Shown: in pieces, positions 1 to 53,872 of the stretch
How positions within the stretch are numbered: the first letter of the stretch is position 1
How the letters are laid out: each line of letters opens with the position of its first letter
NCBI GenBank assembly: GCA_965262915.1
Contig: OZ253564.1
Span: 288,001 to 352,000 of the forward strand
DNA: 64,000 nucleotides
Reading direction: 5' to 3'
DNA from: Candidatus Spongiisociaceae bacterium
GTDB taxonomy: Bacteria > Actinomycetota > Acidimicrobiia > Spongiisociales > Spongiisociaceae
Position numbers and translations under genes: made by a program
The notes under the pieces: model-generated
The model's input: the letters and a program-made list of their open reading frames with translations, nothing else
What the model was told of the DNA's origin: nothing
Database searches by the model: none

Positions 1-542
1 GCCCGACCGAGTATGGCTAGGGCGTCGCGATGGGCCAGGTCATCGAACGTTTCCAGGGCTGCAGGGTAGTACTCGCGCAGCGCGTTGCGCATCTGGTTGG
101 TGTGGCGGGTCCGCGCCCAGATCAGGTTCTGATGGGCACGGGCCATGATCTTGATGCCGTCCGCGTCTGGGCTGTCCCCGGCTACCGGACGGTGGTTGTG
201 ACGGTCGGTTCGTACCAGATCGGCTAACACCTTGGCGTCTCCTCGGTCTGATTTGGCTCCACCCTGGCGGTGACGGTCCCGGTAACGGGAAACTGCCATC
301 GGGTTGATCGCATACACCTGATAACCCGCCCCGACCAGAGCACCGACCCACAGACCACGGTCGGTCTCGATCCCTACCACCACCTCGGCCGCATCCGATG
401 CGTGTTTGGCGACCATCTCGTGCAAGCGGGCCACACCCGCCAGGCCCTCCGGTAGACGGGAGAACCCCAGGCGGGCTCCCTCCTCGTCCAGCAGATACAC
501 ATCGTGATGTCCCTCAGCCCAGTCGTTACCCACAAAGATCAT
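1..542 (-). CDS. IS110 family transposase (element A), 5' part, runs off the window edge
   Basis: Manual translation from ATG at 542: MIFVGNDWAEGHHDV...GIETDRGLW...AKSDRGDA (DEDD RuvC-like motifs); close paralogue of the gene starting at 3367. Confidence 0.92.
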   Translation of the reverse strand, partial: MIFVGNDWAEGHHDVYLLDEEGARLGFSRLPEGLAGVARLHEMVAKHASDAAEVVVGIETDRGLWVGALVGAGYQVYAINPMAVSRYRDRHRQGGAKSDRGDAKVLADLVRTDRHNHRPVAGDSPDADGIKIMARAHQNLIWARTRHTNQMRNALREYYPAALETFDDLAHRDALAILGR

Positions 543-559
543 CCTTCGCCCCTTCCTTG

Positions 560-786
560 CGCGGGTCCACTCTCTGCTGAGCTGTGGAGAACGCCTGGCG
601 GCGACCTAGCAGATCAGTGCTCTGTGGCACGCCACCCCCTCAGCGCTACAAGCAGCCCTCACTCACCGGCCGGGGCACGATCTATCAGCAGGAATCAACG
701 TTCCAGGAGCCTGGAGTACTCACCGGCCAGCCAGCTCAACCACCACACCCTCCCAGAAACACCGGCAGAAGTGGTGGACCCCCATT
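560..786 (-). ncRNA. Predicted IS110 bridge RNA in the non-coding left end of element A
   Basis: ~230 nt leader conserved with 3385-3609; internal AGGAGCCT (705-712) is identical to the element's flank (787-794). Confidence 0.7.
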
Positions 787-882
787 AGGAGCCTTGTGGA
801 AGGTCCGCACCGTGAGTGTACTGTCCGCCGCTTCTTGCCAGGAACCCGTTTTGGTAAACGGTAGTCCACGGGGAGGTGGTTC

Positions 883-2112
883 ATGTCGGAGGATCGGGTT
901 GATGTTTTCGGTGGGGTTGACACCCATCGGGACACGCATGTCGCGGCGGTGGTCGATGGCGTCGGTCGGGTGGTCGGCTCCGAGCCGTTCGGGGCCGACC
1001 ACACCGGATATAGGCGGATGGCGGCGTGGATGCAAGCGAAGGGGCAGCTGGTCCGAGTCGGGGTGGAAGGAACGGGTAGCTACGGCGCGGGGCTCGCCCG
1101 TTACCTGACCGAGGCGAACATCGAGGTGGTCGAGGTCATGCGTCCCAACCGGCAACTACGCCGCCGGAAGGGCGGCAAGACCGACAGCGTCGACGCCGAG
1201 GCGGCAGCCCGGGCGGCCGCCTCAGGTGAAGCAACCGCAGTTCCCAAATCCGGTGTGGGACCGGTCGAGTGTCTCCGGATGCTGCTGGCCGCCCGCCGCT
1301 CCGCGACCAAGGCCCGCACCCAGGCCGCCAACCAGATCCACGCCCTGGTGGTCACCGCCCCAGAGCCGATAAGACACCAACTGGCGGGCAAGAAACTCAG
1401 AGCACAGGTCAAGGTGTGCGCCCGCTGGCGTCCCGGCGAAGCACAGACCACCGTCGCGTACGCGAAAAGGGCGCTGCGCCACCTGGCCCGCCGATACCAG
1501 ACCCTCGAGGTCGAGATCACACAACTCAAGCGCGAGATCAGAGGTCTATGCGCCCAGGCCAACCCGGCGCTGCTGGGCGCCCCAGGCGTCGGCCCTGACA
1601 CAGCCGCCGCGCTGCTGGTCGCTGCCGGCGACAACCACGGGCGAATGAAATCGGAAAGGTCGTTCGCAGCGTTATGCGGATCCAGCCCCGTGCAGGCATC
1701 ATCAGGCCAGACAGTGCGGCATCGTCTCAACCGGGGAGGCAACCGCAAAGCCAACAACGCTCTGTGGCGGATAGCCACCACCCGGATACACAACGATGCC
1801 CGCACCCAAGCCTATGTAGCCAAACGAGAAACCGAAGGCAAGAACCGCAAAGAGATCATCCGCTGCCTCAAGCGGCACATCGCCCGAGAAATCTACCGGC
1901 TCATCACCAACCCGCCCCCAACCCCGGACTACACCCGCCTGCGCGCCCTACGCCAACAAGGAGGCATCACCATCACCCAGGCCGCCGAAGAACTCCGAAC
2001 CCGCCCGGCCCGTATCTCAGAACTAGAACTCGGCCGCAACCACAACCACCAGCTAGCAACCCAATACCAGAGGTGGCTCCGAACCCGCCAACCGGCCCCG
2101 TCCCCGATTTGA
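883..2112 (+). CDS. IS110 family transposase (element B) with C-terminal XRE-like HTH
   Basis: GGVDTHRDTH, GVEGTGSYG, KTDSVDA, SSG..RHRLNRGGNR motifs; right end TTGACA-ACCATAGGAGCATC. Confidence 0.95.
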   Translation: MSEDRVDVFGGVDTHRDTHVAAVVDGVGRVVGSEPFGADHTGYRRMAAWMQAKGQLVRVGVEGTGSYGAGLARYLTEANIEVVEVMRPNRQLRRRKGGKTDSVDAEAAARAAASGEATAVPKSGVGPVECLRMLLAARRSATKARTQAANQIHALVVTAPEPIRHQLAGKKLRAQVKVCARWRPGEAQTTVAYAKRALRHLARRYQTLEVEITQLKREIRGLCAQANPALLGAPGVGPDTAAALLVAAGDNHGRMKSERSFAALCGSSPVQASSGQTVRHRLNRGGNRKANNALWRIATTRIHNDARTQAYVAKRETEGKNRKEIIRCLKRHIAREIYRLITNPPPTPDYTRLRALRQQGGITITQAAEELRTRPARISELELGRNHNHQLATQYQRWLRTRQPAPSPI

Positions 2113-2149
2113 CAACCATAGGAGCATCCCCAGGCGCGTAATTGTCAAG

Positions 2150-3367
2150 CTGCGGCTTGGTTGATGGTGGTTCGGTGTGCCCAGGCGGTGTGTTCGTTGT
2201 GGGGGGTTTGGTGTTTGAGGCAGCCGTGGAGGATGCCTACGAGTCGGTTGGCTAGGGCTCGTAGTGCTTGGTGGTGGAGGTCGCCTGCTGCTCGTTTCTG
2301 GTCGTAGAAGGCTCGGGCTCCTGGGCTTGGGGTTAGGGAACAGAACGCCCATTGGTCCAGGGCGTTGGGGAGACGCCGCTTTTCGGACGTGGCGGGCGAC
2401 GACGGCGTGTTTGCGGCCTGACGCGATGGTGATGGGCGACGTTCCGGCGTAGTTTCTGCGAGACTTGGCGCTGGTGTAACGGTGGGGGTCGAACCTCGAA
2501 CTCACCGAGCGCCCGGGCGCCGAGCACAGTACCGAGTCCTGGCTGGGAGAGGTAGATCACGGCGTCCGGGTGCTGCTCAAAACGGGTCTGGAGGGTCGCT
2601 TCGAGTTCGGTGATCTGGCGGTTGGTTTCCACAATGATCCTCACCAATGACGCGACCGTCGCCCCGTAGGCGTCCTCGACCCGCCCAGCTGCTCTGAGAT
2701 GGGCGCCTCGTAAACCCGCTTGGATACGGCGGGCGGTCGCATCGAGGTTGCGTTGCCGTCCACCTCTTTTGAGCGCAGCCCGGATCTGGGTGATGGTCAG
2801 GCGGGCCCCTGTGCTGGGGGTGGGTGCCCGACCCAACACGGCTAGGATGTCGCGATCTGCCAGGTCCCCGAAGGTTTCAAGGGCTGCCGGATAGTATTCA
2901 CGTAGCGCGTTGCGGACCCCGTTGGTGTGGCGCACCCGAGCCCAGATCAGGTTCTGATGCGCTCGTGCTGTGATCTTGATGCCTTCCGCCCCGGGGCTGT
3001 CGCCAGCCACTGGACGATGATTGTGACGGTCGGTGCGTACCAGATCCGCTAACACCTTGGCGTCCCCGCGGTCGGACTTGGCTCCGCCCAGGCTGTGACG
3101 GTCCCGGTAACGGGACACCGCCACCGGATTGATTGCATACACCCGATAGCCGGCTGCGACCAGCGCGGCGACCCAAAGGCCGCGATCGGTTTCGATCCCT
3201 ACCACCACCTCTCCAGCATCCGATACGTGCTTGGCGACCATCTCATGCAACCTGGCTACACCTTCCAGGCCTTCTGGTAGACGCCGGGCAGCAAGTTTGG
3301 TTCCACCCTCGTCCATCAGACACACATCGTGATGTGCCTCAGCCCAGTCATCTCCCACAAAGATCAT
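2150..3367 (-). pseudogene. IS110 family transposase (element C), frameshifted near 2500 and 2390
   Basis: MIFVGDDWAEAHHDV N-terminus; the C-terminal NYAGTSPITIASG motif lies in another frame (ORF 2053..2505). Confidence 0.88.
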
Positions 3368-3384
3368 CCCTTATCCTCCCTTGC

Positions 3385-3609
3385 TCGGGCCTGCTCTTGC
3401 TGAGCTGTGGAGGAAACGCCTGGCGGCGACCTAGCAGATCAGTGCTCTGTGGCACGCCACCCCCTCAGCGCTACAAGCGGCCTCACCAACCGGCCGGGGT
3501 ACGATCTATGTTCAGGAATCAGCGTTCCAGGAGCATTCGGTACTCACCGGCCGGCAGCTCAACCACCACACCCTCCCAGAAACACCAGAAGAAGTGGTGG
3601 ACCCACATT
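3385..3609 (-). ncRNA. Predicted IS110 bridge RNA in the non-coding left end of element C
   Basis: Conserved with the element A leader; internal AGGAGCAT (3529-3536) and CTATG (3506-3510) correspond to the two flanks (3610-3617 and 2117-2121). Confidence 0.75.
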
Positions 3610-4726: not shown

Positions 4727-5088
4727 GTCTTCGTCTGACCCTAGGTCTAATTCGCGACGTAGTTCCCTGCGACTTGGCCCGAGCCCAGGGGAGCAACCCA
4801 GCAACAGTTGGGCGAGCGGATGGGCATCTCTCCCCAGGCAGTCCATCACTACTGGACATCCCGGTAGCACCCAGCCTGTTGCCCTGCTGGGTGGCTCTGA
4901 TGTGTGATGATCGGAACTGGTTGTTCACCTGGGGTCGGCAGCGCTCAGCCAGCCTATTACTGAGATAGCCCCCTGTGGGGTGTGATATCATCGCGGTGGT
5001 TGGATGCCAGCAGACCGCCTAGTCTTCCGATGACGATTCTGCTCACCGCCACCGACTTTCCAACCGCAGACTGTGACCGTTGATAAGC

Positions 5089-5105
5089 GGCTCTTCGGAA
5101 ATGAG
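5089..5105 (+). repeat. ISL3-type terminal inverted repeat, interrupted by a mini-element
   Basis: GGCTCTTCGGAAATGAG is identical to the ISL3 ends at 23358 and 57071. Confidence 0.75.
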
Positions 5106-5301
5106 ATGCTTCTATGTGTCTATCAGGTCACATCCGCTTCGAAGCCGAACCCCGCCCCGGACCGGGGGACAGGCCGACAGATCCCCAGCAAGGCAACACA
5201 CGCGCCGGTGTCTAGTCGGGTCAGACCCGCCCCCCGGTCACAGGGGACCACCCCGATCATCGCAGCAGCCCCCAAGAAAACAGGGCACCCTCCAGTATGA
5301 G
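5102..5301 (-). mobile_element. ~200 bp non-autonomous IS110-like mini-element, copy 1
   Basis: Highly similar to 53505-53699 in inverted orientation; TGAG repeated at both ends; no credible ORF. Confidence 0.65.
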
Positions 5302-5419
5302 TGATTTTCGCTGGTCGCCATCAGGGACTCTGGTCGTGGGCGGCGCCCCGGTGCTGGTGTGAGCCGCAGTCGGCGCCGCGGCGGCAGTGGTGGGCGCCGC
5401 GGCCGTTCTGGCCGGTCGA

Positions 5420-8200
5420 TCACAAATGGGTGACGTTGTATTCGATTCCGAGCTGGCGTAGGCCTTCTTTGACAGTCAGGTCGAGAGTGTTTTGCTTGAT
5501 GCCCTCGGGGTGGGAGGCGTTGATGGTGAGGGTGACTGTGACGGAGGCTCCGGTGGCTACAAGCGGTGAGACGGCAACCTTGACGACGTCGCGGATCCTG
5601 TCGGCGGGGACCTGGCTTGCGGTGACGACCACGCTGGTTGGGTCACCAGTCGGGTGAGTCTCTTCATGGTCGCTGGGGTGTGTGCTCTTTGATCCGGCGT
5701 GAGTTTCTGTGGTGGTGGAGGTCTCGCTGTTGGAACTTGGCTGGTCTTTAGGTGTGTGGTCGCGGATCAATTTGGTGATGGCGGCGGCTCGAACTAGCCA
5801 GGTGCCGAGTTGGAACTGGATCTCTGAGGGGTCGATGTCGGTGTTGAAGCGACGCACGGCGTCTGCTGCGTACCAGGTGGCTCCTGATGCGAGCCCGAAG
5901 ATGCCGTTGGTGGCGCCGCGGGCGAGGCAGTCTCTGAGCACGTCGGTGCTGGCGAGTTTGGGCAGGCGAGGCAGGCGGTAGAAGTAACTGAGCAGTTTGT
6001 GCAGCTCGACGGCTTCGTTGTCGGGGCCGATCAGGCCGTAGCGTTCCGATAGCAGCGCGGCCGGCGCCAGCTTAGCGAGCGCCAGCCGTTGGCCGGTGGT
6101 GAGGTGTTCGATGACGCGCTTGGTGATCGTGTCGCTGCCTCGGGCGGGGCCGAGATCGACAAGGTTGAAGCGGATGCCGCCGTTGCCGTTGGGGCCGAGT
6201 GTTGCCAGGTGCCGGTAGGCCATGACGACGAGTCGTGGGAGGCTGGCTTCGGCGTCTCTGAGACGCGCCGCGAGCTGTTCCTTCTGTTCTTGGTTGAACC
6301 GCTTGAGCCGCGTGTGGTCGTTGGTGATGTCTCTCATGGCGGCGAGAGTGCGGGCGGTCTGACGCGCCCTGGATATGCCGACGCTGTCGGCGGCGACGAC
6401 GACTAGAGCGTTCTTGTTGACTCGGGCAGAACTGCCCCGGTTGTTGAGGATCTCTTCGGCGGACGCGCGCCCGTCTCCGTCGATGGCTAGTTCTGCGCTG
6501 AGAATGGCCAGAGTGAGGCGGGGTTCGTCCGCGACGTCCATCGTCTCCGCGACATTCGTGTTGACGCGAAACGGCTCCAGCGTGGGAGCCGCGACAGCGG
6601 TGGCTTCTCGGAACAGTTGCAGGATGCGGCCGTCACTGACGGCTCCTTCCCGCTCGACTATGACCTTGTTGAGGTTCGGTTCGGTTGTGAACCGGTAGCG
6701 GTCGCCTTCTTGGCGCATGTACCAAAGCGACCCGGCGAGCGCGTCGCGCACGTCTTCGATGATGCCCCGCGAGAGACCCGGCCGGCCGACGCCGATGAGC
6801 ATTTGAGCTGCGGAGGCTCCTAGGACCCGGTCGGAGCCGAAGCTGTGCAGGAACGCCGACGTGGCGAGCCCTACCGCAGCGCGGTGCCGAGCAATGTCGC
6901 CTCCGCGTCGGCGGTCCTCTTCGACAGCTTTGGAGTCGCCTCGGATGATGTCGGCGTTCAGCGCCGACTTGTAGGACTCCCCGGCGAAGCGGATGATCTC
7001 GGCCCGCACACCGGCGTCGTCGAGGGGCACGTCGCCGCAGCAGATGAGCGTTCCGGCGTGTTGGCGCAGCGTCAGGGCCTTCACGGTGTGAGCCAGCGTC
7101 CGGAGCGCCCCGCGGGTTCGCTGGAAACCCGACAGCGACCCCCAGCGGTTGGTCAGGATGTCGATCAGTTCGGGATGGAAGGGGTAGGAACTGACGATTC
7201 GGCTCCTGTAGGCGGGGTCGCGGTAGGACTGTGGCACAACGTCGCCCAGCTGTTCGTAGTAGGCGCCGTAGGCGTCGGCCACGGCCTGCCGCTCCGCTAG
7301 TTCACCGACTGCCTCGAACAGACGCGTGTGCAGGATCGGGAAGATGTCGTCGCCCTCGACGGGAGTGACGATGTTCTCGGTGCGTCCCACCACTTTGGAG
7401 AGCCGCTCGAACATCTCTTCTCCGGAGAGGGACGAGTAGTCCTCAAGCCGTGACGAGGTCAGGGTGGCCACGATCGCCGCACCGGGAACGTTCGCGGCGG
7501 CCGTGCAGAGTTCCTTGATGACGGTGAGGGTGGTTCCGGCCAGGTTCCCGTCGCCGACTCTCACCGACAGCGCCTTGTTGAGGTACTCGAGGGTCTCGTC
7601 GAGCAGAACGAGGCACGGCGCGGAGTTCTGTAGCAGCCGCACGATCTCAGGGGTGGAAGTCCCGAGCAGCCTCTCGTCTTGGTCGCGTATCTGGGCGTGC
7701 GCCGAGGAGCCGCCAAGCTGCCACGCCAGATGCCCGAGCAGCGAGTGAACCCGCGTTCCGTCGGGCATCTGTTCTGGAGTGACGCCGAGAGCGGAGCCGT
7801 CGAGCACAGCCACATTCGCCTTTGGGAGCGTCGCGGCCTTGAGTGCGCCGACGACTTGTCGGCCCAGCGGCGTGCGGGCCACCTGGTGCGGATCGCGGAA
7901 GAGGTGGTAGGCCGCGAGGAGAGTGTGGGTCTTGCCTCCCCCGAACTCGGTCTGCATCCGGTGAACCGCAGCAGACGAGGTGTCGCCGGCGAGGCGGTTG
8001 CCGATCTCGACGAGAGCGGCCTGCAGGGGCTCTGTGAGGTAGGTTTTGTCTGCGAAGATCTTGGGGTCGAGATAGTCCTTGGGGCCTAGGCCGCGGGCGG
8101 CGAGTCCCAGGTCGGCGGCGAATAGCGACTCGTCGAAGGAGCCGTCGCTGATGTCGGTGTGCGGCCGGGCGACTTCAAGCCATGGTCTCAGGTCGGTCAT
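5420..8200 (-). CDS. DUF499 AAA+ ATPase (HmaC / Gao RL-type)
   Basis: PW..VARPH.DI..G.FDES.FAADL N-terminus, FGGGKTH Walker A, LLDE Walker B, YPFHP, FQRTRGALR. Confidence 0.9.
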   Translation of the reverse strand: MTDLRPWLEVARPHTDISDGSFDESLFAADLGLAARGLGPKDYLDPKIFADKTYLTEPLQAALVEIGNRLAGDTSSAAVHRMQTEFGGGKTHTLLAAYHLFRDPHQVARTPLGRQVVGALKAATLPKANVAVLDGSALGVTPEQMPDGTRVHSLLGHLAWQLGGSSAHAQIRDQDERLLGTSTPEIVRLLQNSAPCLVLLDETLEYLNKALSVRVGDGNLAGTTLTVIKELCTAAANVPGAAIVATLTSSRLEDYSSLSGEEMFERLSKVVGRTENIVTPVEGDDIFPILHTRLFEAVGELAERQAVADAYGAYYEQLGDVVPQSYRDPAYRSRIVSSYPFHPELIDILTNRWGSLSGFQRTRGALRTLAHTVKALTLRQHAGTLICCGDVPLDDAGVRAEIIRFAGESYKSALNADIIRGDSKAVEEDRRRGGDIARHRAAVGLATSAFLHSFGSDRVLGASAAQMLIGVGRPGLSRGIIEDVRDALAGSLWYMRQEGDRYRFTTEPNLNKVIVEREGAVSDGRILQLFREATAVAAPTLEPFRVNTNVAETMDVADEPRLTLAILSAELAIDGDGRASAEEILNNRGSSARVNKNALVVVAADSVGISRARQTARTLAAMRDITNDHTRLKRFNQEQKEQLAARLRDAEASLPRLVVMAYRHLATLGPNGNGGIRFNLVDLGPARGSDTITKRVIEHLTTGQRLALAKLAPAALLSERYGLIGPDNEAVELHKLLSYFYRLPRLPKLASTDVLRDCLARGATNGIFGLASGATWYAADAVRRFNTDIDPSEIQFQLGTWLVRAAAITKLIRDHTPKDQPSSNSETSTTTETHAGSKSTHPSDHEETHPTGDPTSVVVTASQVPADRIRDVVKVAVSPLVATGASVTVTLTINASHPEGIKQNTLDLTVKEGLRQLGIEYNVTHL

Positions 8201-18069: not shown

Positions 18070-19506
18070 GGCTCATCGATTTCAGTGGGGAGTGACCGAT
18101 GCGAGGAGGTCCCAGTTGGGTTTCCCCGCGTAGAGGAGGGCCCGGATTCGGTAGTTCGCGAAGTTGGGTAACCCGAACGCGATGCGTTTGATCCGTTTGA
18201 TGAGGTTGTTGAGGGCTTCGGTGGCATCTGTTGGTTACCTTGGGTGATGTGCCAGTTGGTGATCTGGGGGGTCCAGCGGGCGATGGTGCGACCTAGCTTG
18301 TTGATCTCCGGTGGGCAGGATTCGTCCTGGAGGTCGTCTGCGAGCTGGAGGGTGTATCGGAGAGCAAGGACCGGACTTTCGATCCCGTAGATGCCCCGTA
18401 CCGTTTCCTTCGCGTGCCAGGCGGTGCGTACCTCCCCGTAGGGGTCACCGGCATCGAGGAGACCACGCAGCCGGGTTTGACCGCGGTCGCTGATCCTCTC
18501 GGAAGCGGCGGTTAGGAGCCGCCGTATCCGATACAGCGGGTCATCCTTGCGGCCTCTGTGTCCCAGGGTTTCGTTCTGGACTCTTCGTCGTAGGTCGTCG
18601 AGTCGCTGGTTGGCCAAGCGGATGACGTGGAAGGGGTCTGCTACCTGCACAGCGTTGGGGAGCACCCGGTTATACGCCTTCCGATAAGGCCCTGACATGT
18701 CCGACACCGCCCAGCGGATCCCGTCGAGCCACTCGGGGGGCTGGGATCGGAACCAGGCTGCGGCGCTATCAGCCGTTCTACCACCGACTATGTCGAACCG
18801 GCTGGTGGCCCCCCACGTCGACGACAGAAGTGCACCAAACCTTGGTTCGCCACCGGCCTTTCCGCCAGAACAACGACTCTTGTCGATGCCCACAGCTCCG
18901 ACCTCGCCTATCCGATCGGTGTCGGCCCCCAGGAGGGCTTCGCCCCAGCGGACGACCTCGTTGTTCACCGTATGCCAATCACAACCAAGCTCCGCGGCGA
19001 CCTCGTCGACCGGACGGCCCCGCCCACCCACCCCGACGGTCACCCACCGGGCCGCTCGGGATGTCAACAACGCCCGTTGGGGACCAATCGTGGGGTCTTG
19101 CTCGATGAACGACCTGATCGCACAGTCGGTGTTCGGGCACGTCCACCGCCGTTTCCGCCACCGCAGCCGAACCGGACGGCCGAACGCCGGTAAATCCACC
19201 AACACAACCGTTCTGTGACCCTTCGACCACACCGGGCCGCCACAGGACTCACACAACGGGCGGGCCTTGCGGGACCCGATCACCACCCCAAGCGGTGCAC
19301 CCTCGCCCGGGTCGTTGATCCCTACCAGATCAACGTCGCCCAGGCCTACCAACTTCTCGCACATGCGCGTAGGATCAGCTTCCACAGGGGTCCTCCTGCC
19401 TCGGATGTCATTGCTGAAGTCCGATTATGGAGGACCCCCCATCACTTCTGGTGGATTACCACTCCCCCTAGCAGATCCCCGACTCCCCACTCATTTCCGA
19501 AGAGCC
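18070..19506 (-). mobile_element. ISL3 family IS, copy 1 (frameshifted transposase)
   Basis: GGCTC...GAGCC ends; near-duplicated flanks CAGCAAAGC / CACAAAGC; homologous to 23358-24790. Confidence 0.92.
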
Positions 19507-23357: not shown

Positions 23358-24790
23358 GGCTCTTCGGAAATGAGTGGGGAGTAGGGGATCTGCCAGGGGG
23401 AGTTGGAATCCACCAGAAGTGAGGAGGGGTCCTCCATAATCGGGTGTTGGTAATGACATCCGAGGCAGGAGGACCCCTGTGGAAGCTGATCCTACGCGCA
23501 TGTGCGAGAAGTTGGTAGGCCTAGGTGAGGTTGATCTGGTAGGGATCAACGACCCGGGCGAGGAGGCACCGTTGGAGGTGGTGATCCGGTCCCGCAAGCC
23601 CCGGCCGTTGTGTGAGTCCTGTGGCGGGTCGGTGTGGTCGAAGGGCTATCGGACGGTTGTGTTGGTGGATTTACCGGCGTTCGGCCGGCCTGTGCGGCTG
23701 CGGTGGCGGAAACGGCGCTGGACATGTCCGAACCCCGACTGTGCGCTCAGATCGTTCATCGAACAAGACCCCAAGATTGGTCCCCAACGGGCGTTGTTGA
23801 CATCCCGAGCGGCCCGGTGGGTGACCATCCAGGTGGGTGGGCGGGGCCGTTCGGTCGACGAGGTCGCCGCAGAACTTGGTTGTGATTGGCATACGGTGAA
23901 CAAAGAGGTTGGCCGCTGGGGCGAAGCGCTGCTGGAAGCAGACACCGATCGGGTCGGGACCGTCGAAGCTGTGGGAGTGGACGAGACGTTGTTCTGGCGT
24001 CGGGGCCGTTGGCGTACCAAAGTCTGGTGCACCTCTGTCGTCGACGTTGGCGGCCACCAGCTGATCGACATAGTCCCTGGTAGAACAGCAGAAAGCGCCG
24101 CAGCCTGGTTCCGGTCACAACCCACCGAATGGTGTGAGGCTATCCGCTGGGCGGTGTTGGACATGTCCGGTTCGTATCGGAAGGCGTATGACAGGGTGCT
24201 GCCGCACGCGCTGCAGGTAGCGGACCCGTTCCACGTCATCCGCCTCGCCAACCAGCGTCTCGACGAGGTACGACGAAGAGTCCAAAACGAAACCCTCGGG
24301 CATCGAGGCCGCAAGGATGACCCGCTGTATCGGATACGGCGGCTCCTAACCGCTGCGCATGAGAGGATCAGCGACCGGGGTCAAATACGGCTGCGTGGTC
24401 TCCTCGATGCTGGTGACCCCTACGGGGAAGTGCGCACAGCCTGGCACGCGAAAGAGACGGTACGAGGCATCTACGGGATCGAGAGTCCGGTCCTTGCTCT
24501 CCGATACACCCTCCAGCTCGCAGACGACCTCCAACACGAATCCTGCCCACCCGAGATCAACAAGCTGGGTCGTACCATCGCCCGCTGGACCCCCCAGATC
24601 ACCAACTGGCACATCTCGAAGGTAACCAACGGACCCACCGAAGCCCTCAACAACCTCATCAAACGGATCAAACGAGCAGCGTTCGGGTTCCGCAACTTCG
24701 CGAACTACCGAATCCGCGCCCTTCTCTACGCGGGGAAACCCAACTGGGACCTACTCCCATCGGTCACTCCCCACTGAAATCCGATGAGCC
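23358..24790 (+). mobile_element. ISL3 family IS, copy 2 (intact)
   Basis: IRs GGCTCTTCGGA / TCCGATGAGCC; perfect 8-bp TSD AATAAACT. Confidence 0.96.
23479..24777 (+). CDS. ISL3 family transposase
   Basis: Zinc finger CESC...CPNPDC, GVDET, DPFHV, TNGPTEALNNLIKRIKR. Confidence 0.96.
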   Translation: MEADPTRMCEKLVGLGEVDLVGINDPGEEAPLEVVIRSRKPRPLCESCGGSVWSKGYRTVVLVDLPAFGRPVRLRWRKRRWTCPNPDCALRSFIEQDPKIGPQRALLTSRAARWVTIQVGGRGRSVDEVAAELGCDWHTVNKEVGRWGEALLEADTDRVGTVEAVGVDETLFWRRGRWRTKVWCTSVVDVGGHQLIDIVPGRTAESAAAWFRSQPTEWCEAIRWAVLDMSGSYRKAYDRVLPHALQVADPFHVIRLANQRLDEVRRRVQNETLGHRGRKDDPLYRIRRLLTAAHERISDRGQIRLRGLLDAGDPYGEVRTAWHAKETVRGIYGIESPVLALRYTLQLADDLQHESCPPEINKLGRTIARWTPQITNWHISKVTNGPTEALNNLIKRIKRAAFGFRNFANYRIRALLYAGKPNWDLLPSVTPH

Positions 24791-33232: not shown

Positions 33233-34416
33233 CTAGAAGCCGAGGGACAGCCTCCGGTCGGGGCCGCGGTCGTCGGCGTCGTCGACCTGGTAGTGGAGGC
33301 AGTGCGCTCCCAGCGTCTGGCAGGCGCATTCGCGGTCGCCGGCCAGCGTCGTGTCGGTCACCCGCCCGGCCCGTTGCGGGTCTCCCGTCATAGCAGCCAA
33401 CGTTCCCAGGTAGTCAACAGCGGCGTGGGCCGTTTCGTAGCTGGGGTAGGGAAGCGACGTGCGGATGACCGTCCCGGAGCGCCGGCGGGCTTCCAGCCGC
33501 CAGGTGTCGGGCGGTGTCGGTGGGAGGATCCGGACTGTGGCCGCGGCTTCGTCGTCTGTTGGGGGTATGTGGCCGACGCCTTGGGCTCCCCGCCAGGGCT
33601 GCCACCCGTCGAAGCGGATCGGGTGTGCACCGTTGACGACGCGCAGAGCGAAGTCGCTGGCGTCGAGTGCCGCCTTCTCTGTCGGGTACGGTGCCGAGTG
33701 CCCCAGCGGCGCCCCGTCTTCGTCGCGGGTGACCATCTCCCATCCTTGCGTTGATCGGGGGTTGGGCCGCACACTGACCGACACCTGGTTGGCCACCGGG
33801 GCGGCCAACTCGTCGAAGTGGTGGCAGCGCCGCTCCAGCTGTGGGCAGTCACATTCCCTGTCGATGCGGACCTGTCGGGGCTGCACCTGGTCGACGGAGC
33901 GGAGAAAGCCCACCGCCATGTCGGCTGCCCGATACGTCGGGTACAGGTGGGACTCCGCTTCCAGATCCCCATCCGGACGGTACGCCACCAGCTTCCACCC
34001 GTAGGGGACCGGCACCGGACGCACCCTCATAGCGTCGCCCCCCAACCGCCGGGGGCGGTACTCGGATCCCGGCTCCCAGTTAGCGAACCGAAGCGGGAGG
34101 CGGGCGCTGACCAGACCCGCAGCGAAGTCGCACGCCGCCGCAGCGTCGGACTCCGACGGGTACCTGCCCGAGGTCGCTACCGGCTCACCGTCGGGGTGGC
34201 GCACCATAAGCGTCCAACCCCATTCGGCGTCGTCTGGCTGGACGGTGAGGGAGGGGTAAGCCGGCTTGGTGGCGCTGGGCTGCTCGGGTACAAACGACGG
34301 CTCGCCTGGCTGGTCCTGGGACCACTCTTGGGGCTCGTCCCCGATACGTCGTCGGAGAGCAGCGCCGGCGGTTAGGAACCTCGCCCGCCACCCCTCCACG
34401 GTCCTCCCCACGGTGC
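33233..34416 (-). CDS. Protein with four YegP/DUF1508-like repeats and two SWIM-like zinc fingers; 5' end cut by IS21
   Basis: Four W.L...DG.....S..YP....A repeats; CDC-x6-CHH and CAC-x6-CLH. Confidence 0.65.
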
Positions 34417-34745
34417 TGTTGACGATCATTGAAAATCCCCAGACTCGATCACTGAAAATCCCCACCCTGTGACGGCAAATACCAGACGTTGAGTGGGGCC
34501 CTCTCCAAGCTGCTGACTGAGAGATTCGGCAGCGAGGAGAGGGAGCCCTGCCCCTGATGTTGGCACAGGAGGAATACGTGGAAGTACACGCGTTGAGGAA
34601 GCGAGGCTGGTCGATCTCGGCTATTGCCCGCCATCTGGGAAGAGACCGCAAAACAGTGCGTGCCCACCTGTCAGGTGAGCACGTGCCGGGCCGGCGGAGG
34701 CCGGCGGAGCCGGATCCGTTCGATACCTTCGAGGCTTATGTTCGG
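34417..34745 (+). mobile_element. istA: IS21 family left end with truncated istA
   Basis: TGTTGACGATCATTGAAAATCCCC with a second TGAAAATCCCC repeat; MLAQEEYVEVHALRKRGWSISAIARHLGRDRKTVR from 34557. Confidence 0.88.
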
Positions 34746-34994: not shown

Positions 34995-35413
34995 GGCGTG
35001 CCTCGGCGGGTGCCGTCGCCCACGCGGCGGAGGGCCTCGAGGACAGCAGCCTGGTGGCGGGGGGGGATGGCCAGGCCGGATTCCCACCGTGACCACTCCG
35101 CTGCGTTGATACCGGCCCGTTGGGCTGCTTCGGCTTGGGTGAGCCCCGCCGCGTAGCGGCGGCCGCGGAGGGTGGTGACGTCGACGAGGTGGCCGGCGGG
35201 GATGTCGAGGGCGGCGGCGAGGTCTGCGAGTTGGTGGGCGTGGGGGGTGGTCTCGCCCCGTTCCCATTCGTGGATGCGCTGGCGTTGTGTTCCGGCTTTG
35301 TGGGCGAGTTGGGTGGGTGTGAGCCCGGCGTGCAGGCGGGAGGCTCGGAGCTTCCCGCCTGCGAAGGGGGCCCGGTGGCTGGTTGGCGCCATCGCCGGGA
35401 GCCTACCCCCCAT
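34991..35413 (-). CDS. Tandem XRE-family HTH regulator
   Basis: Two repeats: R..AGLT..QLA...WERG and R.AAGLTQAEAA...WESG. Confidence 0.85.
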   Translation of the reverse strand: MGGRLPAMAPTSHRAPFAGGKLRASRLHAGLTPTQLAHKAGTQRQRIHEWERGETTPHAHQLADLAAALDIPAGHLVDVTTLRGRRYAAGLTQAEAAQRAGINAAEWSRWESGLAIPPRHQAAVLEALRRVGDGTRRGTP

Positions 35414-36705
35414 CCCCGCTCCCGCCGCCGTTGGTGGCGGGTTCGTAGAGGCCGAGTTGGGCGGCTAGCCCTGCGATGATGTTGTACTCGTGGGGGTGGC
35501 GGTCGGCCCACCAGTGGTTGTGGAGCATCCGGTCAATCTTTTGGCGGATGAACGCCCGTGCCAGGGTCGGGGCGTCGACCGCGGCGATAGCTTCGGGTGG
35601 GTACTGCCAGGCGATGTCGCGGGTGGTGTGGTCGTGGGGGATGGGGATGAGCCGGTCCCCGTCCGGTACCTGCTGCAGGCTGCCCAGTGCCAGCACCCGC
35701 AGGGCGGTGTCGCACACGGTGGCCTCGTCGACGGTTTCGAGCCGGTCCCCAACCTCGAACATCAGCCGGGCGTAGGCGGCGGTGGCTTCCGCTTGGTGGG
35801 CTTTGCGGTCGGCGTCCTCTTGCGCTCCGATAGCGTCGTAGTCGGGGAGCTGCAGCCCGGAGTCACCGCCCGGCTCGTGGCGGCTCCGGTCTCGACACGA
35901 CGGCCGCTCCACGATAGGCGACCCCGGCCAGTCCCGGCTGAGGACGATGACATGGCAGGGCTCGGCCGTGTGAGCGTCCGCATCGAGGTCCCACAGTTGG
36001 CGCAGCGCCGTGTGGTCGGGGTCGGACCAGTACCGGCTGACGATGGCCGCTTTGTAACCGTCGGCTCGTATCTCGCTCACACGGGCTTCGAGTTCGTCCC
36101 TCGACTCGGCCTCTTTCAGCACCGTCTCGGTGGCGTGGACCGGCTTGGTAGCCAAGCTGGTCAGCTTGTGGGGTCCGACGTTGCGGTCGGCCAGGCGGCT
36201 GATCTGGTAGGCGTGGTCGACGGTGATGTCGCCTGCCCGTACCTTCTCCTGCACTTCGGCGGGTAGGGCCAGCAGCCGGAGCCGCTTGCTGACGTGGCCC
36301 TTCGAGCGGCCGACCCTGCGGGAGACCTTGCCCTGGGACCAGCCCGCCTCGACCAGCATGGCGAACCCGCGTGCCTCGTCGATCGGGTCCAGGTCCTCGC
36401 GGACCAAGTTCTCTACCAGGGTGGCAACCAGGCGCTCGTCGTCGCCGCCGACATCGACCACCACAGCTGGCACCCGGCTGAGGCCGGCCTGCTCCGCGGC
36501 GGCCACCCGACGGTGGCCCGCTACCAGCACCCACCGGCCGCCGCCGTTGGCGCCGTGGCTGGCGACCGTGACCGGGGTGTTTCAACGATCGTCAACACAC
36601 GGACTCCACCAGGGTGTCGAGGTCCCCAAGCCCGGTACGCACGTTGCGTCCCCGGTCCAGGTCCCCAATGTCGACCACCAGTACCATGCTCTGCTGTTCT
36701 GCCAT
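35403..36705 (-). pseudogene. parB: ParB/RepB/Spo0J family protein interrupted by an IS21 end scar
   Basis: AGHRR, ENLVREDLDPIDEA, HTH; N-terminus MAEQ...RNVRTGLGDLDTLVESV stops at the IS21 IR. Confidence 0.85.
36574..36597 (-). repeat. Solo IS21 terminal inverted repeat
   Basis: TGTTGACGATCGTTGAAACACCCC on the minus strand matches the end at 34417. Confidence 0.8.
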
Positions 36706-40075: not shown

Positions 40076-40161
40076 GCCGGGCGCGACCGTACGACTAACC
40101 GTGCGAGTAGCCCCCAAACCGTGCGACTAACCGTGCGTCTGTCTCTGACCTGGGGTTTCGC
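40076..40161 (-). promoter_or_regulatory. ACCGTGCG repeat module upstream of the primase-like gene
   Basis: Four 8-mer copies plus TCTGTCTCTGACCTGGGGTTTCGCG; module recurs at 40452-40519 and, inverted, at 49228-49313. Confidence 0.65.
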
Positions 40162-40451
40162 GGACGCCGCCTGGGGGATGTGAGTCCCTGCTGCGGGTGG
40201 CTACTCGGCACAGCCGACCTGCCGGCAAGCAGCCTTCCTCGAGGAGTACGAAGCGCCCGTGTCTGGTCGGGCGGGGAAAGCACGGCGAAACAGCCGGGCA
40301 GCTTCCGCCGGTCCACACGCCCAGGCCGCCTCCCCTACGGCGAGGGGATCCGGTCGACGTAGGAGCTGGCCGAAACATGACGCATGGGACGGCTCCAGGG
40401 GTACCACCCGCGTGGGTAACAGCGGTACCCCCCGGGCCGCCCGCGCTGGCC

Positions 40452-40519
40452 AAACCGTGCGTTTACATCCCCAAACCGTGCGACTAACCGTGCGTCTGTC
40501 TCTGACCTGGGGTTTCGCG
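40452..40519 (-). repeat. Second ACCGTGCG repeat module
   Basis: Three 8-mer copies and the same 25-bp tail. Confidence 0.8.
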
Positions 40520-40968
40520 GGGCAGCGGTGCCGGCTCCCCGGCCGGGCCGACGGGGCGTGTCACCTCCCCCCCTCCCCAGGGTTACAGGGGTACCCCTGG
40601 GCGGGAAGCCGCAGAAGCCGGGCTCCACCTCTACGCGGTAGCGGGTAACGGGGGGATTTTGGGGATCTGGGTGGGCGGGTGTCGCCGTGTTGGGGCCGGG
40701 CCTTGGGCGGGGCGGGCCCGGTTTGCCCAGACCCGGAAGGGCCGGCTACTTGCCTCGGGAGGACGGGTGTGGGTCTGGGTGGGCTGTGTGCCGGGGCGGG
40801 TATTGGTGGGCTGACCTGGGGGTTTGGGGGTCTGGTCGGGGTTGGTGGCGGGGTGTACGGCGATAGGTGTGTGTGTGGTCGGGATGGGTGGTTCGGGTGT
40901 CGGGTGGTTGGGATGGGTGGGGCGGTGTCGGGTGGTTCGGTGCCGGGGTGGGTGTCCGGGCGGGGGGT

Positions 40969-48894: not shown

Positions 48895-49412
48895 GGTGCT
48901 GAGGGGGTAGGGCGGTATCTGTGGTGCCGCGAAACCCCAGGTCAGAGACGAGCGCGCTCGCGAGCGCGCCTTTGAGCGAGCGGTCGCGCGCTGTTGGTGC
49001 CGCTACGGTCGCCGACCAAACAGCCCGGATCTTCCCACCGGCAGGACGTGCAGCAGCCAAGAACAAGGAATTCGATCGGAAAGGAAACCCCGAGATGAGA
49101 AACCAACAACACGACCCTTCTTTGTCCCACGACGCGGGCACGGACCTTGCGGGTACTGCAGTATCCGGAGGGGAAATGGGTGCTGCGGGGCGGGGTGTTG
49201 AGGGGGGTAGGGCGGTATCTGTGGTGTCGCGAAACCCCAGGTCAGAGACAGACGCACGGTTAGTCGCACGGTTTGGGGCTAAACGCACGGTTAGTCGCAC
49301 GGTCGCGCACGGTCCGGGCCGCTACGGTCGCCGACCAAATAGCGGGGCTCTCCCATCGGAGGGCCGCAGCAACCAAGTACAGGAATTCGATCGGAAAGGA
49401 AACCTCGAGATG
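48895..49412 (+). repeat. Imperfect ~200-bp direct duplication of the alpA upstream region
   Basis: 48895-49100 and 49193-49412 share GGGGTAGGGCGGTATCTGTGGTG, CGCTACGGTCGCCGACCAAA and GGAATTCGATCGGAAAGGAAAC. Confidence 0.85.
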
Positions 49413-49622
49413 AGTAAGCGAACACCCCGCCGCAATATCCGAATCCTGAGACAGCCCGAAGTGACCGAGATGACCGGTTTGAGCAGAACCACGATCTGGC
49501 GTCGGGTCCAAGACGGGTCGTTCCCCCAGCCTGTGCGGCTGGGACCTGAGGGCAGCCGGGCTGTGGGCTGGTTACACCACGAAGTGCAAGACTGGCTCAA
49601 CGGTCTCCGACCTGCAGCATGA
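49410..49622 (+). CDS. alpA: AlpA family regulator/excisionase
   Basis: ILRQPEVTEMTGLSRTTIWRRVQDGSFPQPVRLG...AVGW; AAAGGA RBS. Confidence 0.92.
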   Translation: MSKRTPRRNIRILRQPEVTEMTGLSRTTIWRRVQDGSFPQPVRLGPEGSRAVGWLHHEVQDWLNGLRPAA

Positions 49623-53425: not shown

Positions 53426-53504
53426 TCCCCAAAGCAACCGTCAAGTCCCGCTGCCGGTACCCACCCGGGCTCCGCCAGCGGATCTGTTGGCGATCACCGA
53501 AATT

Positions 53505-53699
53505 CACTCATACTGAAGGTGCCCTGTTCTTAGGGGGGCTGCTGCGATGATACGAGGTGGTCCCCTGTGACCGGGGGGCGGGTCTGACCCAAGTGAAATC
53601 CGGCGCGTGTGTTGCCTTGCTGGGGATCTGTCGGCCTGTCCCCCGGTCAGGGGGCGGGGTTTGCGGTTCGAGGCGGATGTGACCTGATAGACACACTCA
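53505..53699 (+). mobile_element. ~195 bp non-autonomous IS110-like mini-element, copy 2
   Basis: Inverted homologue of 5102-5301; CACTCA at both ends. Confidence 0.65.
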
Positions 53700-53761
53700 A
53701 ACTGATAACCCACAAGCCCAAATAGCCTGTGACCTGGGAGTATATCCCAGGTCACAGTGGA

Positions 53762-53872
53762 GGAGCGGGCACCGAGACCTGCGAGGTAGCCGACGGGCTG
53801 TTGTTGGACGTGTACGACGACGGCTAGGTGGTCGGCCTCGACGTTGACCATGCTTCGGAACTGCTCGCCCCC
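53762..53872 (+). pseudogene. DUF2283-like fragment
   Basis: GTETCEVADGLLLDVYDDG*VVGLDVDHASELL. Confidence 0.55.

Follow-up and report, generated by a model that had tools for sequence, protein, structure and literature searches.

Truncated bridge-RNA genes of an IS110 lineage, probably cut by a second IS110 lineage, in the genome of a Candidatus Spongiisociaceae bacterium

Introduction

MITEs are miniature non-autonomous elements: short stretches of non-coding DNA that resemble one end of an autonomous insertion sequence (IS). Among IS110-family elements, IS621 possesses a bridge RNA (PMC11208160, PMC11208158) whose left target guide is sense and whose right target guide is antisense to the flanking DNA, according to PMC11208160. 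The ISPpu9 report (PMC12288879) describes an RNA-only module, ssr9, that forms circles and is proposed to spread independently. IS4321 and IS5075 target the terminal repeats of Tn21-family transposons, as mentioned in PMC11187229. Recombination in which the RNA matches one arm only is described as half-match recombination (10.64898/2026.08.31.748434) and in connection with partial circles (10.64898/2026.08.14.744561).

Here we describe two copies of a short repeat within a window of 64,000 nt (assembly GCA_965262915.1, contig OZ253564.1, positions 288,001 to 352,000) from a Candidatus Spongiisociaceae bacterium; coordinates are those of the window unless given as genome positions. The copies derive from the left end of an IS110 lineage, here called P. 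Like IS621, P appears to encode an RNA in its left end upstream of a DEDD recombinase, obeys the same orientation rule (left guide sense of the left flank, right guide antisense to the right flank), places both target guides in one internal loop and has a second guide pair matching its own ends. P differs from IS621 in lacking a clean CT crossover dinucleotide, its left and right junctions having only a C in common, whereas a second lineage found here, IS-A, does use CT; P also has no Rfam family match, and half of the donor loop is missing from the window copies. As with ssr9, transposase-less copies of a small-RNA gene stand beside full IS110-family copies in one genome, but interruption by another IS accounts for the window fragments, which give no sign of independent spread. 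The likeness to IS4321 and IS5075 lies in the insertion of IS110/IS1111-type elements into terminal repeats of other mobile elements, always at the same position; the hosts here are different, namely IS21 ends, ISL3 right repeats, and the guide-coding DNA and right end of another IS110. Half-match recombination of the kind described in those two reports could have produced the copy 2 junction, but the copy 1 junction fits neither arm and nothing here shows such an event. The fragments resemble MITEs in being short, non-coding and related to an IS end; unlike MITEs, they do not have both functional ends, and the mere three copies vary in their junctions and in their contexts.

The repeat and its copies

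Window positions 5120-5303 on the minus strand (copy 1) and 53505-53690 on the plus strand (copy 2) share 89% identity, do not code for protein and fold strongly. Copy 3, with 93% identity, lies 0.7 kb upstream of the window start. A preliminary description had presented the window copies as inverted, hairpin-rich, non-coding homologues, which is borne out. The plus strand at 5060-5340 can be aligned to 53470-53750 in reverse complement, BLAST gives 88.7% identity across 213 nt, and a repeat search also listed the arms (I12, I22, I24). Copy 2 as a folded RNA reaches -91.2 kcal/mol (z = -2.54), with equal or better folding in 2 of 200 shuffles. The repeated core reported at both ends is present as well: on the transposase strand, copy 1 carries CTCA in AATCA[CTCA]TACTGG and GCAT[CTCA]TTTCC, and copy 2 carries CACTCA in AAATT[CACTCA]TACTG and AGACA[CACTCA]AACTG. 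The boundaries proposed for the elements, 5102-5301 and 53505-53699, conflate four different things, which are separated below.

Copy 1 (5120..5303, minus strand) is assigned by alignments, the guide table and the consensus structure as a P-lineage IS110 left end and putative truncated bridge-RNA gene. It starts with (C)ACTCATA at 5303, continues with a 5' hairpin and a complete target-binding loop, and carries the left target guide ACTAGACAC (5208-5216) and the right target guide GCTGGGGAT (5181-5189). Copy 2 (53505..53690, plus strand), assigned in the same way by alignments and folding, terminates in ..CCTGATAG, has the left target guide AGTGAAATC at 53592-53600 and the right target guide GCTGGGGAT at 53619-53627, and is 92% identical to a copy in another genome (G001). 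Undamaged target-loop stems, as seen in copies 1 and 2, would also be expected of a still-functional RNA gene.

All three copies have the left end, but each has a different right junction. All of them terminate within the left donor guide (..TGATAG), followed by ACAC; copies 1 and 2 break off this guide after ..TGATAG and have no right donor guide. After ACAC, copy 3 continues into IS-A, copy 1 into an 11-nt right-end remnant and copy 2 into unrelated DNA.

Full-length relatives and the predicted bridge RNA

The P left end lies upstream of a DEDD/Transposase_20 recombinase gene in full-length relatives. Within the same genome, the ~190-nt segment is 71-83% identical (BLAST) to the left ends of full-length copies. 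In this genome and in relatives, homologous leaders precede recombinase genes, with ORFs of 409-426 aa that carry the Pfam domains DEDD_Tnp_IS110 and Transposase_20; at loci of relatives, the recombinase is adjacent to the segment in 5 of the 15 examined. The earlier view of these segments as IS110-derived and without a transposase gene is supported.

P elements begin with (C)ACTCATA.. and end with ..ATAGGAGCATC. According to the consensus structure, both target guides lie within one internal loop closed by a long stem (~21 bp), which encloses the left target guide, a small hairpin and the right target guide. The left target guide, the 9 nt before (T/C)GG, equals the left flank, with a mean match of 7.18 of 9 over 28 distinct guide/flank pairs (examples are ACTGAAATC, CGCGAAAAC, CCGGGAAAC, CCTCGTAAC, AAAGAACAC and GGTGAAATC), against a mean of 4.31 of 9 over 442 control pairs in which a guide was set against the flank of another guide differing at 4 or more positions. 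Among subfamilies this guide aligns in two registers, one base apart. The right target guide occupies the 6-7 nt before GATCTGTCGGCC and corresponds, in reverse complement, to the bases that directly follow ..GCATC; at least 5 contiguous nt agree in 5 of 8 distinct pairs, and the other three match over 4, 2 and 0 nt. The left donor guide of full-length copies would be ATAGGAGC within the left end, equal to ATAGGAGC of the right end, and the right donor guide would be CCGTGAGTG, the reverse complement of the left-end start CACTCA. Both of these assignments are made by analogy, because the donor ends hardly vary. Stem pairs are mostly invariant and covariation in the structure is weak, with a double change in 5 of 62 predicted pairs. 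RNAalifold also pairs the left-end start with the right donor guide; we take this for an artefact that arises because guide and donor are complementary.

The covariation of guides and flanks supports, at the level of sequence, the view that the P leader behaves as a bridge RNA gene. The leader occupies the recombinase-adjacent end, and its target-loop guides match flanks across the lineage; a complete donor loop with both guides is absent from copies 1 and 2. No relevant curated RNA family reached the gathering score over the whole window in Rfam 15, a collection that may hold no bridge RNA family, and at E values up to 10 the region 53450-53760 gave just two microRNA chance matches.

A second IS110 lineage inserted in P

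The ACAC that follows the truncated copies is the terminal 4 nt of IS-A, a second IS110 lineage whose guides match its insertion site within P. Across 29 family genomes, ACAC follows ..TGATAG in all 8 such ends. These ..GATAGACAC ends occur in 4 of the 29 genomes, and 6 of the 8 continue into the IS-A right end, CCCAGG..AAATGTCAAGC; copy 3 and all of the ends of this kind in relatives (5 of 5) still have IS-A, and the only ..GATAGACAC ends without it are the two window copies. The scar, from the tip of the IS-A right end, lies at 5116..5119 (minus strand) beside copy 1 and at 53691..53694 (plus strand) beside copy 2.

Copy 3 consists of a left-end fragment, then IS-A, then the remaining P with its right donor guide, recombinase gene and right end. 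This first IS-A element (IS-A#1), assigned to the IS110 family by Pfam (DEDD_Tnp_IS110 and Transposase_20), its junctions and its guides, has its left-end part at 1..786 (minus strand), its guides at about 660-715 and its right end at genome position 287306, before the window; it sits within the donor-guide-coding DNA of P. The remainder of P follows at 787..2128 (plus strand) and is colinear with an intact relative (L044). In the alignment of L044 to copies 1-3, agreement extends to ..TAG, and from the same TAG it is window 787-900 that carries the alignment on into the recombinase gene. From 787 the remainder reads TAG-GAGCCTTGTGG.., the rest of the predicted left donor guide, and then the right donor guide CCGTGAGTG. 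The recombinase gene lies at 883-2112 (tblastn at 288880-290100, 79% identity to the P recombinase) and the right end ATAGGAGCATC at 2118-2128, both on the plus strand. Adjoining this right end is IS-A#2 (2129..3609, minus strand; assigned by Pfam DEDD_Tnp_IS110, junctions and guides), a variant whose guides match P-family right ends.

The IS-A junctions, GGCTC-CT-AATGG.. and ..GGGGTGT-CT-ATCACG, are matched by the guides AGGCTCCT and CTGATAG. The target loop reads GGCTC-CT-ATCAG, which is the DNA encoding the P left donor guide, and the guides of a sister variant read the P right end, whose sequence equals that of the guide-coding DNA because the donor guide copies the donor. It is well supported that IS-A, with both of its guides, is aimed at the donor-guide DNA of P and at the P right end, so beheading the P bridge RNA. 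For IS-A#2, the presence at genome position 4804798 of an IS-A right end of the same form without an adjoining P body favours insertion of IS-A#2 in the P right end, and not insertion of P 4 nt inside the IS-A#2 right end; on this parse the P right guide does not match the right flank, CGGGGCGG.

In the best explanation, to which we assign a probability of about 75%, copies 1 and 2 represent orphan 5' fragments of P IS110 elements, that is, truncated bridge-RNA genes cut by IS-A insertion. The truncation point would have been created by RNA-guided insertion of IS-A into the DNA of the left donor guide, with copy 3 (left-end fragment, IS-A, rest of P) as the presumed primary state. Whatever lay past the first 4 nt of IS-A (ACAC) would later have been replaced in copies 1 and 2, in the former by 11 nt that remain of the right end of another IS110, set in the tip of an ISL3 left repeat, and in the latter by ssrA-downstream-like DNA. 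The overall origin would thus be nested IS110 insertions followed by rearrangement. This order of events is our inference, as is the loss of mobility by copies 1 and 2. Since both break after exactly ACAC, a site-specific event is suggested for the loss of IS-A, rather than random deletion. The earlier hunch that the 3' break lies at an internal donor guide proved correct; the deletion then proposed, between that guide and the right end, does not fit, the break being the IS-A insertion point and ACAC being kept in all three copies.

The preliminary description had instead regarded the ~190-200-nt units as transposase-less IS110 mini-elements carrying only a bridge RNA, which P recombinases would move in trans into transposon ends, and we consider this improbable. 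Three copies at three loci, 89-93% identical and with one common 3' boundary, are in keeping with such mobility. There are also published precedents: ends-only IS110/IS1111 elements can be moved with recombinase and RNA in trans (PMC11187229, PMC11208160), circles with the ssr9 small-RNA gene alone were reported for ISPpu9 (PMC12288879), and so were partial circles with one matching donor arm (10.64898/2026.08.14.744561). However, IS-A accounts for the common 3' boundary, and copy 3 is disqualified, the rest of its parent lying beyond IS-A. The unit is without a right donor guide, its end GATAGACAC fits none of the left donor guides of the genome, which all read.TAGGAGC, and no such unit apart from IS-A is found in the other genomes searched. 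Two candidate assignments, GATAGACAC as a mini-element right end and CCCAGG at copy 3 as the target of the right guide, were ruled out by the IS-A right end and the split P.

Flanks of the window copies

The left flank of copy 1 (5304..5323, plus strand) is ATTTTCGCTGGTCGCCATCA, the outer 20-nt terminal repeat unit of an IS21-family element with its tip at 5323. It shares 16 of 20 nt with the unit GGGG-AATTTCAGTGATCGCCATCA that ends IstA/IstB elements, the ORFs of which match rve/Mu-transpos_C_2 and IstB_IS21 in Pfam, and eight further left ends of P abut this IS21 unit. On the left of copy 2, at 53485..53504 (plus strand), stands the IS21-type outer terminal unit TGTTGGCGATCACCGAAATT, assigned by motif family, which begins exactly where homology to the paralogous loci at genome positions 248455 and 4477683 ends. 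Both left flanks are thus of the type of repeated ~20-nt units that end an element with IstA and IstB. The IS21 terminal repeat is the cognate (natural) target of the P subfamily to which the copies belong, and not the ISL3 ends that had been named as the target. The left target guide agrees with its own left flank at 4/9 in copy 1, 6/9 in copy 2 and 8/9 in copy 3, and neither copy 1 nor copy 2 has a right flank that matches its own right target guide. With 4/9, at least copy 1 is therefore not at a site that its guide would choose, whereas the fit of copy 3 would be in keeping with independent insertion of the unit. The left flank of copy 3 also resembles the IS-A left end over ~45 nt only, which is suggestive and no more.

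The right side of copy 1 is composite. The ISL3 left inverted repeat tip GGCTCTTCGGAAATGAG (5089..5105, plus strand; 17 nt) is identical to the tips of ~1.43-kb ISL3 copies; the remainder of this ISL3 copy is missing, and an ISL3 transposase (DDE_Tnp_ISL3) is confirmed for the ISL3 copy of the window at 18070-19506. Next to the tip stands the right-end remnant of another IS110 copy, ATAGAAGCATC (5106..5115, minus strand), whose last C is base 5105, common with the tip. Its likeness to the right end ..ATAGGAGCATC of full-length IS110 copies had been noted before and is confirmed. The 31 nt across the remnant/tip junction recur identically at genome positions 523813-523843, where the remnant leads on into the 3' portion of a fragmentary IS110 recombinase gene. 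Among the 36 ISL3 left tips in the genome, the next bases are TGGGGAGT in 29, GGGGGAG in 3, GGAGGAG in 1, AGGCCCTGCG in 1 and ATGCTTCTAT in 2, the last two being copy 1 and genome position 523815; none of the 36 continues into TGATTTTCG. Copy 1 is linked to the ISL3 tip solely via this unrelated 11-nt remnant. Excision of copy 1 had been said to restore an exact ISL3 end, but only the 17 nt at 5089-5105 are ISL3, ATTTTCGCTGGTCGCCATCA at 5304-5323 is not, and the last 2 nt of the proposed 19-mer come from the IS110 left-end start. An ISL3 repeat borders copy 1 on one side only and copy 2 on neither.

The right flank of copy 2 (53695..53770, plus strand) is a conserved segment, ACTCAAACTGATAACCC.., followed by a hairpin, with homologues beside an ssrA-like 3' end. 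These four other copies, in three genomes (G000 1955977, G001 C68, G001 C60 and G007 C2), begin at the same base, and all four are preceded by ..CGAT. What had been taken for another ISL3-like end, GGGTTATCAGTTTGAGTG, is this segment.

The flanks of copies 1 and 2 rebuild no contiguous sequence: none joining both flanks of either copy was found in the own genome and 40 relatives. The search for empty sites covered all four flanks in the own genome, and the copy 2 right flank and copy 1 inner flank in 41 genomes each, and yielded none, although this does not prove that such sites do not exist; nor was a second copy with matching ends found. A scan of genome contigs for the 20-mer end gave 5 matches, of which 4 are relatives already counted and the fifth, in unrelated AT-rich DNA, is as expected by chance. 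The junction between ACAC and ATAGAAGCATC in copy 1 was reproduced neither by microhomology deletion nor by AC-core crossover nor by IS-A excision. The two parental recombination ends are not both the same in all copies, the three right junctions being different; together with the lack of an empty site and of the right donor guide, this speaks against mobile mini-elements. The preliminary reading, in which mini-elements with a bridge RNA alone sit in ISL3 ends, does not hold, and the repeat should not be counted as a new kind of mobile element.

One or both of the odd junctions could also be assembly chimeras at high-copy repeats of this single-contig genome, which we regard as very improbable. 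The genome holds dozens of near-identical IS copies, its estimated contamination is 5.9%, and short-read contigs break at 5116-5120 and 5289. Against this, a 1542-nt contig spans the junction of the IS110 remnant and the ISL3 tip with no differences up to 5116, this junction recurs at genome position 523815, and each of the two shows divergence from all further copies, as would not be expected of a chimera of other repeats. Four sequencing runs of one sample, which may be the source sample, contain 0.87-0.89 of the sampled words, other runs contain 0.21 or less and the RNA runs 0.04. The contigs of the four runs break at repeat edges and provide no joints; those from the best-matching run end at the repeat edge 5116, and the copy 1 junction is not independently confirmed.

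Possible function of the fragments

The fragments could have been kept as working target-loop-only RNAs, which would pair with the donor loop of another RNA and retarget the P recombinase, including to the P::IS-A junction; to this we give little credence. The IS621 synaptic complex takes its target and donor loops from two different bridge RNA molecules, according to PMC11208158, and the target-loop stems are undamaged in all three copies, but conservation of the stems at 89-93% identity could reflect youth alone. The guides of copies 1 and 3 (ACTAGACAC, and GCTGGG with the reverse complement CCCAGC) match the junction of ..GATAGACAC with CCCAGG, and both window copies are broken at exactly this bond. 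Moreover, the copy 2 right flank ACTCAAACTGA is 10/11 identical to the P left-end start ACTCATACTGA, a match that fits a one-arm ('half-match') donor as described in 10.64898/2026.08.31.748434. The copy 1 junction, however, does not fit this scheme.

As an extension of the preferred reading, in which IS-A cut the P elements, the beheaded remnants may survive as target-loop-only guide genes that steer the resident recombinase in trans. They would then drive local rearrangements, because their guides match the P::IS-A junction where both window copies break. We think this unlikely; if truncated target-loop genes do act in trans, it would bear on the retargeting of bridge systems and on off-target rearrangement.

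Guide variation in the two lineages

The locus records how an IS110 lineage, guided by RNA, inserted into another such lineage, both in the DNA that encodes a guide and at the right end, which comes about because the donor guide has the same sequence as the donor. No insertion of this kind was found in the literature searched, although the supplements of PMC11208160 and PMC11187229 might include the lineage.

A different P subfamily occupies 17 of the 40 ISL3 right repeats. One copy of the P subfamily that targets ISL3, at genome position 3665110, lies at a non-cognate site, the left guide matching at 5/9 and the right guide at 0. In this one genome, guide/flank covariation extends over no fewer than eight subfamilies of P and three variants of IS-A, which together form a natural reprogramming series for two bridge-recombinase lineages. 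Further IS-A variants have different guides, each fitting its own flanks, the right guides GTGTCAG, GTGCCAG and GTGCTAG corresponding to the flanks GACAC, GGCAC and AGCAC, respectively.

Repeat copies and the parent IS110 lineage

The window (G000:C1:288001-352000 in genome coordinates) carries two copies of a repeat, copy 1 at 5120-5303 (- strand) and copy 2 at 53505-53690 (+ strand), and positions 5060-5340 (+) align with 53470-53750 in reverse complement. The genome, assembled as a single contig, has an estimated contamination of 5.9%. A BLAST search of the whole genome gave 88.7% identity over 213 nt between the two copies and placed a third, closer homologue (copy 3; 93.1% over 189 nt) at genome positions 287118-287305, about 0.7 kb upstream of the window start. 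The RNA fold of copy 2 reached -91.2 kcal/mol (z = -2.54), with 2 of 200 shuffles as stable or better. The inverted homology of two hairpin-rich segments noted in the preliminary description is thereby confirmed; its short repeats at both ends are seen in the sequence, and the 11-mer ATAGAAGCATC is present in copy 1.

The same search matched the repeat more weakly (71-83%) at about 20 further genome sites. Several of these lie directly upstream of ORFs of 409-426 aa encoding DEDD_Tnp_IS110 and Transposase_20 domains. In this lineage, here called P, the ends are fixed by three copies of equal length as ..(C)ACTCATAATGG on the left and ..ATAGGAGCATC on the right. Motif scans of the genome detected 43 P left-end starts and 51 right-end sites, some of the latter within left ends, and one P recombinase used as tblastn query returned 51 HSP rows genome-wide, counted as rows and not as merged loci.

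The P leader as a bridge RNA gene

The P leader has the properties of a bridge RNA gene. The 9 nt preceding a conserved (T/C)GG are a copy of the element's left flank (left guide), and the 6-7 nt preceding a conserved GATCTGTCGGCC (right guide) repeat, in reverse complement, the DNA directly past the right end. This orientation, left sense and right antisense, is the rule described for IS621 in PMC11208160. From 48 left-end records of G000 and 27 loci of relatives, 28 distinct left guide/flank pairs were drawn, with 7.18 of 9 positions matching on average; for mismatched controls (442 pairs) the average was 4.31 and the maximum 9, because many left flanks resemble each other. The 8 distinct right guide/junction pairs in G000 gave contiguous matches of 5, 5, 5, 4, 6, 2, 5 and 0, where the score of 2 belongs to an ISL3 right-repeat variant (GAAGA vs GATGA) and the score of 0 to a P copy at a non-cognate site. 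In the consensus fold of six intact leaders, one internal loop contains both target guides, with a closing stem of ~21 bp and a small hairpin separating the guides; since double changes occur in 5 of 62 predicted pairs, covariation supports the structure weakly.

Further downstream in the leader, ATAGGAGC is identical to the P right end, and CCGTGAGTG matches the left-end start CACTCA in reverse complement. By analogy, and judging from position and sequence identity in these nearly invariant stretches, they would be the left and right donor guides, respectively.

The guides differ between P subfamilies. Those of the ISL3-targeting subfamily, ACTGAAATC and TCATCGAT, match the ISL3 right repeat, and in 17 of 40 ISL3 right-repeat tips such an IS110 is inserted, always at the same point, GGCTC(A/T)TC|G.., the other 23 being intact. 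The guides of the IS21-targeting subfamily, ACTGAAAT(C/T) and CCCAG, agree with IS21 ends that are uninterrupted. ISL3 itself (~1.43 kb) is very abundant genome-wide, with window copies at 18070-19506, 23358-24790 and about 57071-58500; DDE_Tnp_ISL3 was detected in a window copy.

Truncation of P by a second IS110 lineage

Copies 1-3 align with L044, an intact P relative, from the left-end start through the entire target loop up to ..GGATGTGAC.TGATAG, a point in the middle of the left donor guide. ACAC comes next in each of the three copies, and beyond it their sequences differ. In copy 3, ACAC runs on as CCCAGGAGCGTAAATGTCAAGC.., which in reverse complement is the 3' end of the gene of a second IS110-family lineage, IS-A (406 aa, DEDD_Tnp_IS110 and Transposase_20). 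Beyond IS-A, the sequence picks up again at window 787 with TAG-GAGCCTTGTGG and is colinear with L044, starting at the exact base where copies 1-3 leave it; this remainder includes the right donor guide, then the P recombinase gene at 883-2112, and finishes at 2118-2128 with ATAGGAGCATC, the right end. Copy 3 is thus no mini-element but the front part of a P element that IS-A has divided in two. Allowing <=1 mismatch, the end motif had 8 matches in 4 of 29 family genomes, and the IS-A right end follows 6 of the 8, the exceptions being the two window copies. A scan of the whole collection, one genome per species, gave 5 matches: 4 were relatives already among the family matches and 1 was unrelated AT-rich DNA.

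In IS-A orientation, the junctions of IS-A in P read GGCTC-CT-AATGGGGG.. and ..CCTGGGGTGT-CT-ATCACG. The IS-A leader contains AGGCTCCT, in sense orientation to the left flank and CT, and 17 nt further CTGATAG, antisense to CT and the right flank. Judging from these matches, IS-A is predicted to be guided to the donor-guide-coding DNA of P. Three IS-A copies in the genome carry the guides AGGCTCCT/CTGATAG, and all three are inserted in donor-guide-coding DNA of P elements, in two P subfamilies. Two more, with guides ATGCTCCT and CATAG, are located in P-family right ends; both kinds of P site are targeted because the donor guide sequence equals the donor sequence. Seven further copies are located in tandem GACACCT/GGCACCT heptamer repeats, where the right guide (GTGTCAG, GTGCCAG or GTGCTAG) varies with the repeat variant and matches flanks GACAC, GGCAC or AGCAC. 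Examples outside the window are at genome 1359847, 2093379 and 372873.

In L034 (G001:C265), a full-length P relative, a 17-nt IS-A left-end piece, AGTGGTGGACCCCCAT, lies in the left donor guide (~1700-1740 of the locus) and appears to be the footprint of a lost IS-A. In L025 (G002), near a left-end fragment, a ~35-nt tandem duplication occurs in the donor-loop part of the leader, ahead of ..GATAGACAC. The sole Rfam gathering-score match in the window, Ms_AS-4 (72.2 bits; 2464-2546, +), is antisense within the recombinase gene (2333-3367, - strand) of IS-A#2, an IS-A variant abutting the P right end; this 'sRNA' match is therefore IS110 gene sequence.

Junctions and flanks of the window copies

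Copies 1 and 2 had been described as IS110 mini-elements without transposase, inserted in ISL3-type terminal repeats, a reading that we rejected on junctions, flanks, empty sites and donor guides. The right junctions of the three copies are three different ones, and neither window copy lies between flanks that belong to one another. Flank searches of the genome and 40 relatives found no uninterrupted target site of the window copies. Any RNA that these encode would be without a right donor guide, and their end GATAGACAC matched none of the left donor guides seen in the genome. Between the left guide of copy 1 and the adjoining flank, 4 of 9 positions agree; no score in the set is lower, and one other copy, whose guide carries a 1-nt deletion, scores the same.

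On the left-end side, copy 1 adjoins ATTTTCGCTGGTCGCCATCA (5304-5323) and copy 2 TGTTGGCGATCACCGAAATT (53485-53504), versions of a ~20-nt IS21-type unit. This unit, often doubled, terminates elements encoding IstA-like and IstB proteins (rve, Mu-transpos_C_2, IstB_IS21) and adjoins eight other P left ends; at copy 2, homology to two paralogous loci ends exactly where it starts. A doubled unit at 34416-34462 (- strand) has no IstA/IstB adjoining, and the neighbouring ORF (35403-36530) is ParB-like.

On the other side, copy 1 continues past ACAC with ATAGAAGCATC and then a 17-nt ISL3 left-repeat tip (5089-5105). Excision of copy 1 was claimed to restore an exact ISL3 end, yet 0 of the 36 ISL3 left-repeat tips in the genome continue in that way. 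The 31 nt spanning the ATAGAAGCATC/ISL3-tip junction recur at genome 523813-523843, where the remnant is continuous with a 3' fragment of a recombinase gene of the IS110 family. Genome 757460 has a third such ISL3 left-repeat tip, which is more diverged; sequence resembling an IS110 right end and the 3' remnant of a recombinase gene follow it, at the same tip position as at copy 1 and genome 523815. Copy 2 continues past ACAC with ACTCAAACTGATAACCC.. plus a hairpin; four homologues of this stretch elsewhere begin at the same base, and all four adjoin an ssrA-like 3' end, with ..CGAT preceding each. Next to copy 2 (53695-53790) is a fragment of an ssrA-like 3' end, together with its conserved downstream segment; both also occur at G000 1955760-1956330, where at genome 1955977 the same base marks the end of a distantly related gene of the IS110 family (27-44% identity to the P recombinase).

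Both window copies are broken exactly after ACAC, with junctions as in the assembly. The guides of copies 1 and 3, ACTAGACAC and CCCAGC (reverse complement of GCTGGG), match the IS-A-made junction in P, ..GATAGACAC|CCCAGG, and the right flank of copy 2 is identical to the P left-end start at 10 of 11 positions. The breaks might fit recombination guided by the truncated target loop, with the donor matching one arm only, which we regard as rather improbable. One-arm-match recombination is reported for IS621 and natural IS110 loci (10.64898/2026.08.31.748434, 10.64898/2026.08.14.744561), and the IS621 structure described in PMC11208158 has target and donor loops supplied by two RNA molecules, so that a target-loop-only RNA is not absurd. 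The copy 1 junction was matched by none of the recombination schemes tried. We infer the sequence of events at the copies.

Bridge RNAs are already known, as are IS4321/IS5075, IS110/IS1111 elements located in other transposons' terminal repeats (cited in PMC11187229), and the RNA-only modules described for ISPpu9 in PMC12288879. No case of one IS110 lineage being directed by its guides to another's donor-guide-coding DNA and right end, with truncated bridge RNA genes as the result, turned up in the full-text articles searched. What is of interest at this locus mostly falls outside the original claim.

Copy 1 also adjoins a 926-aa ORF with DUF499 (5420-8200, -). Exact 51-52-nt repeats (CCCCAAACCGTGCGACTAACCGTGCG..), direct and inverted and unrelated to the copies, occur at 40112-40520 and 48900-49420.
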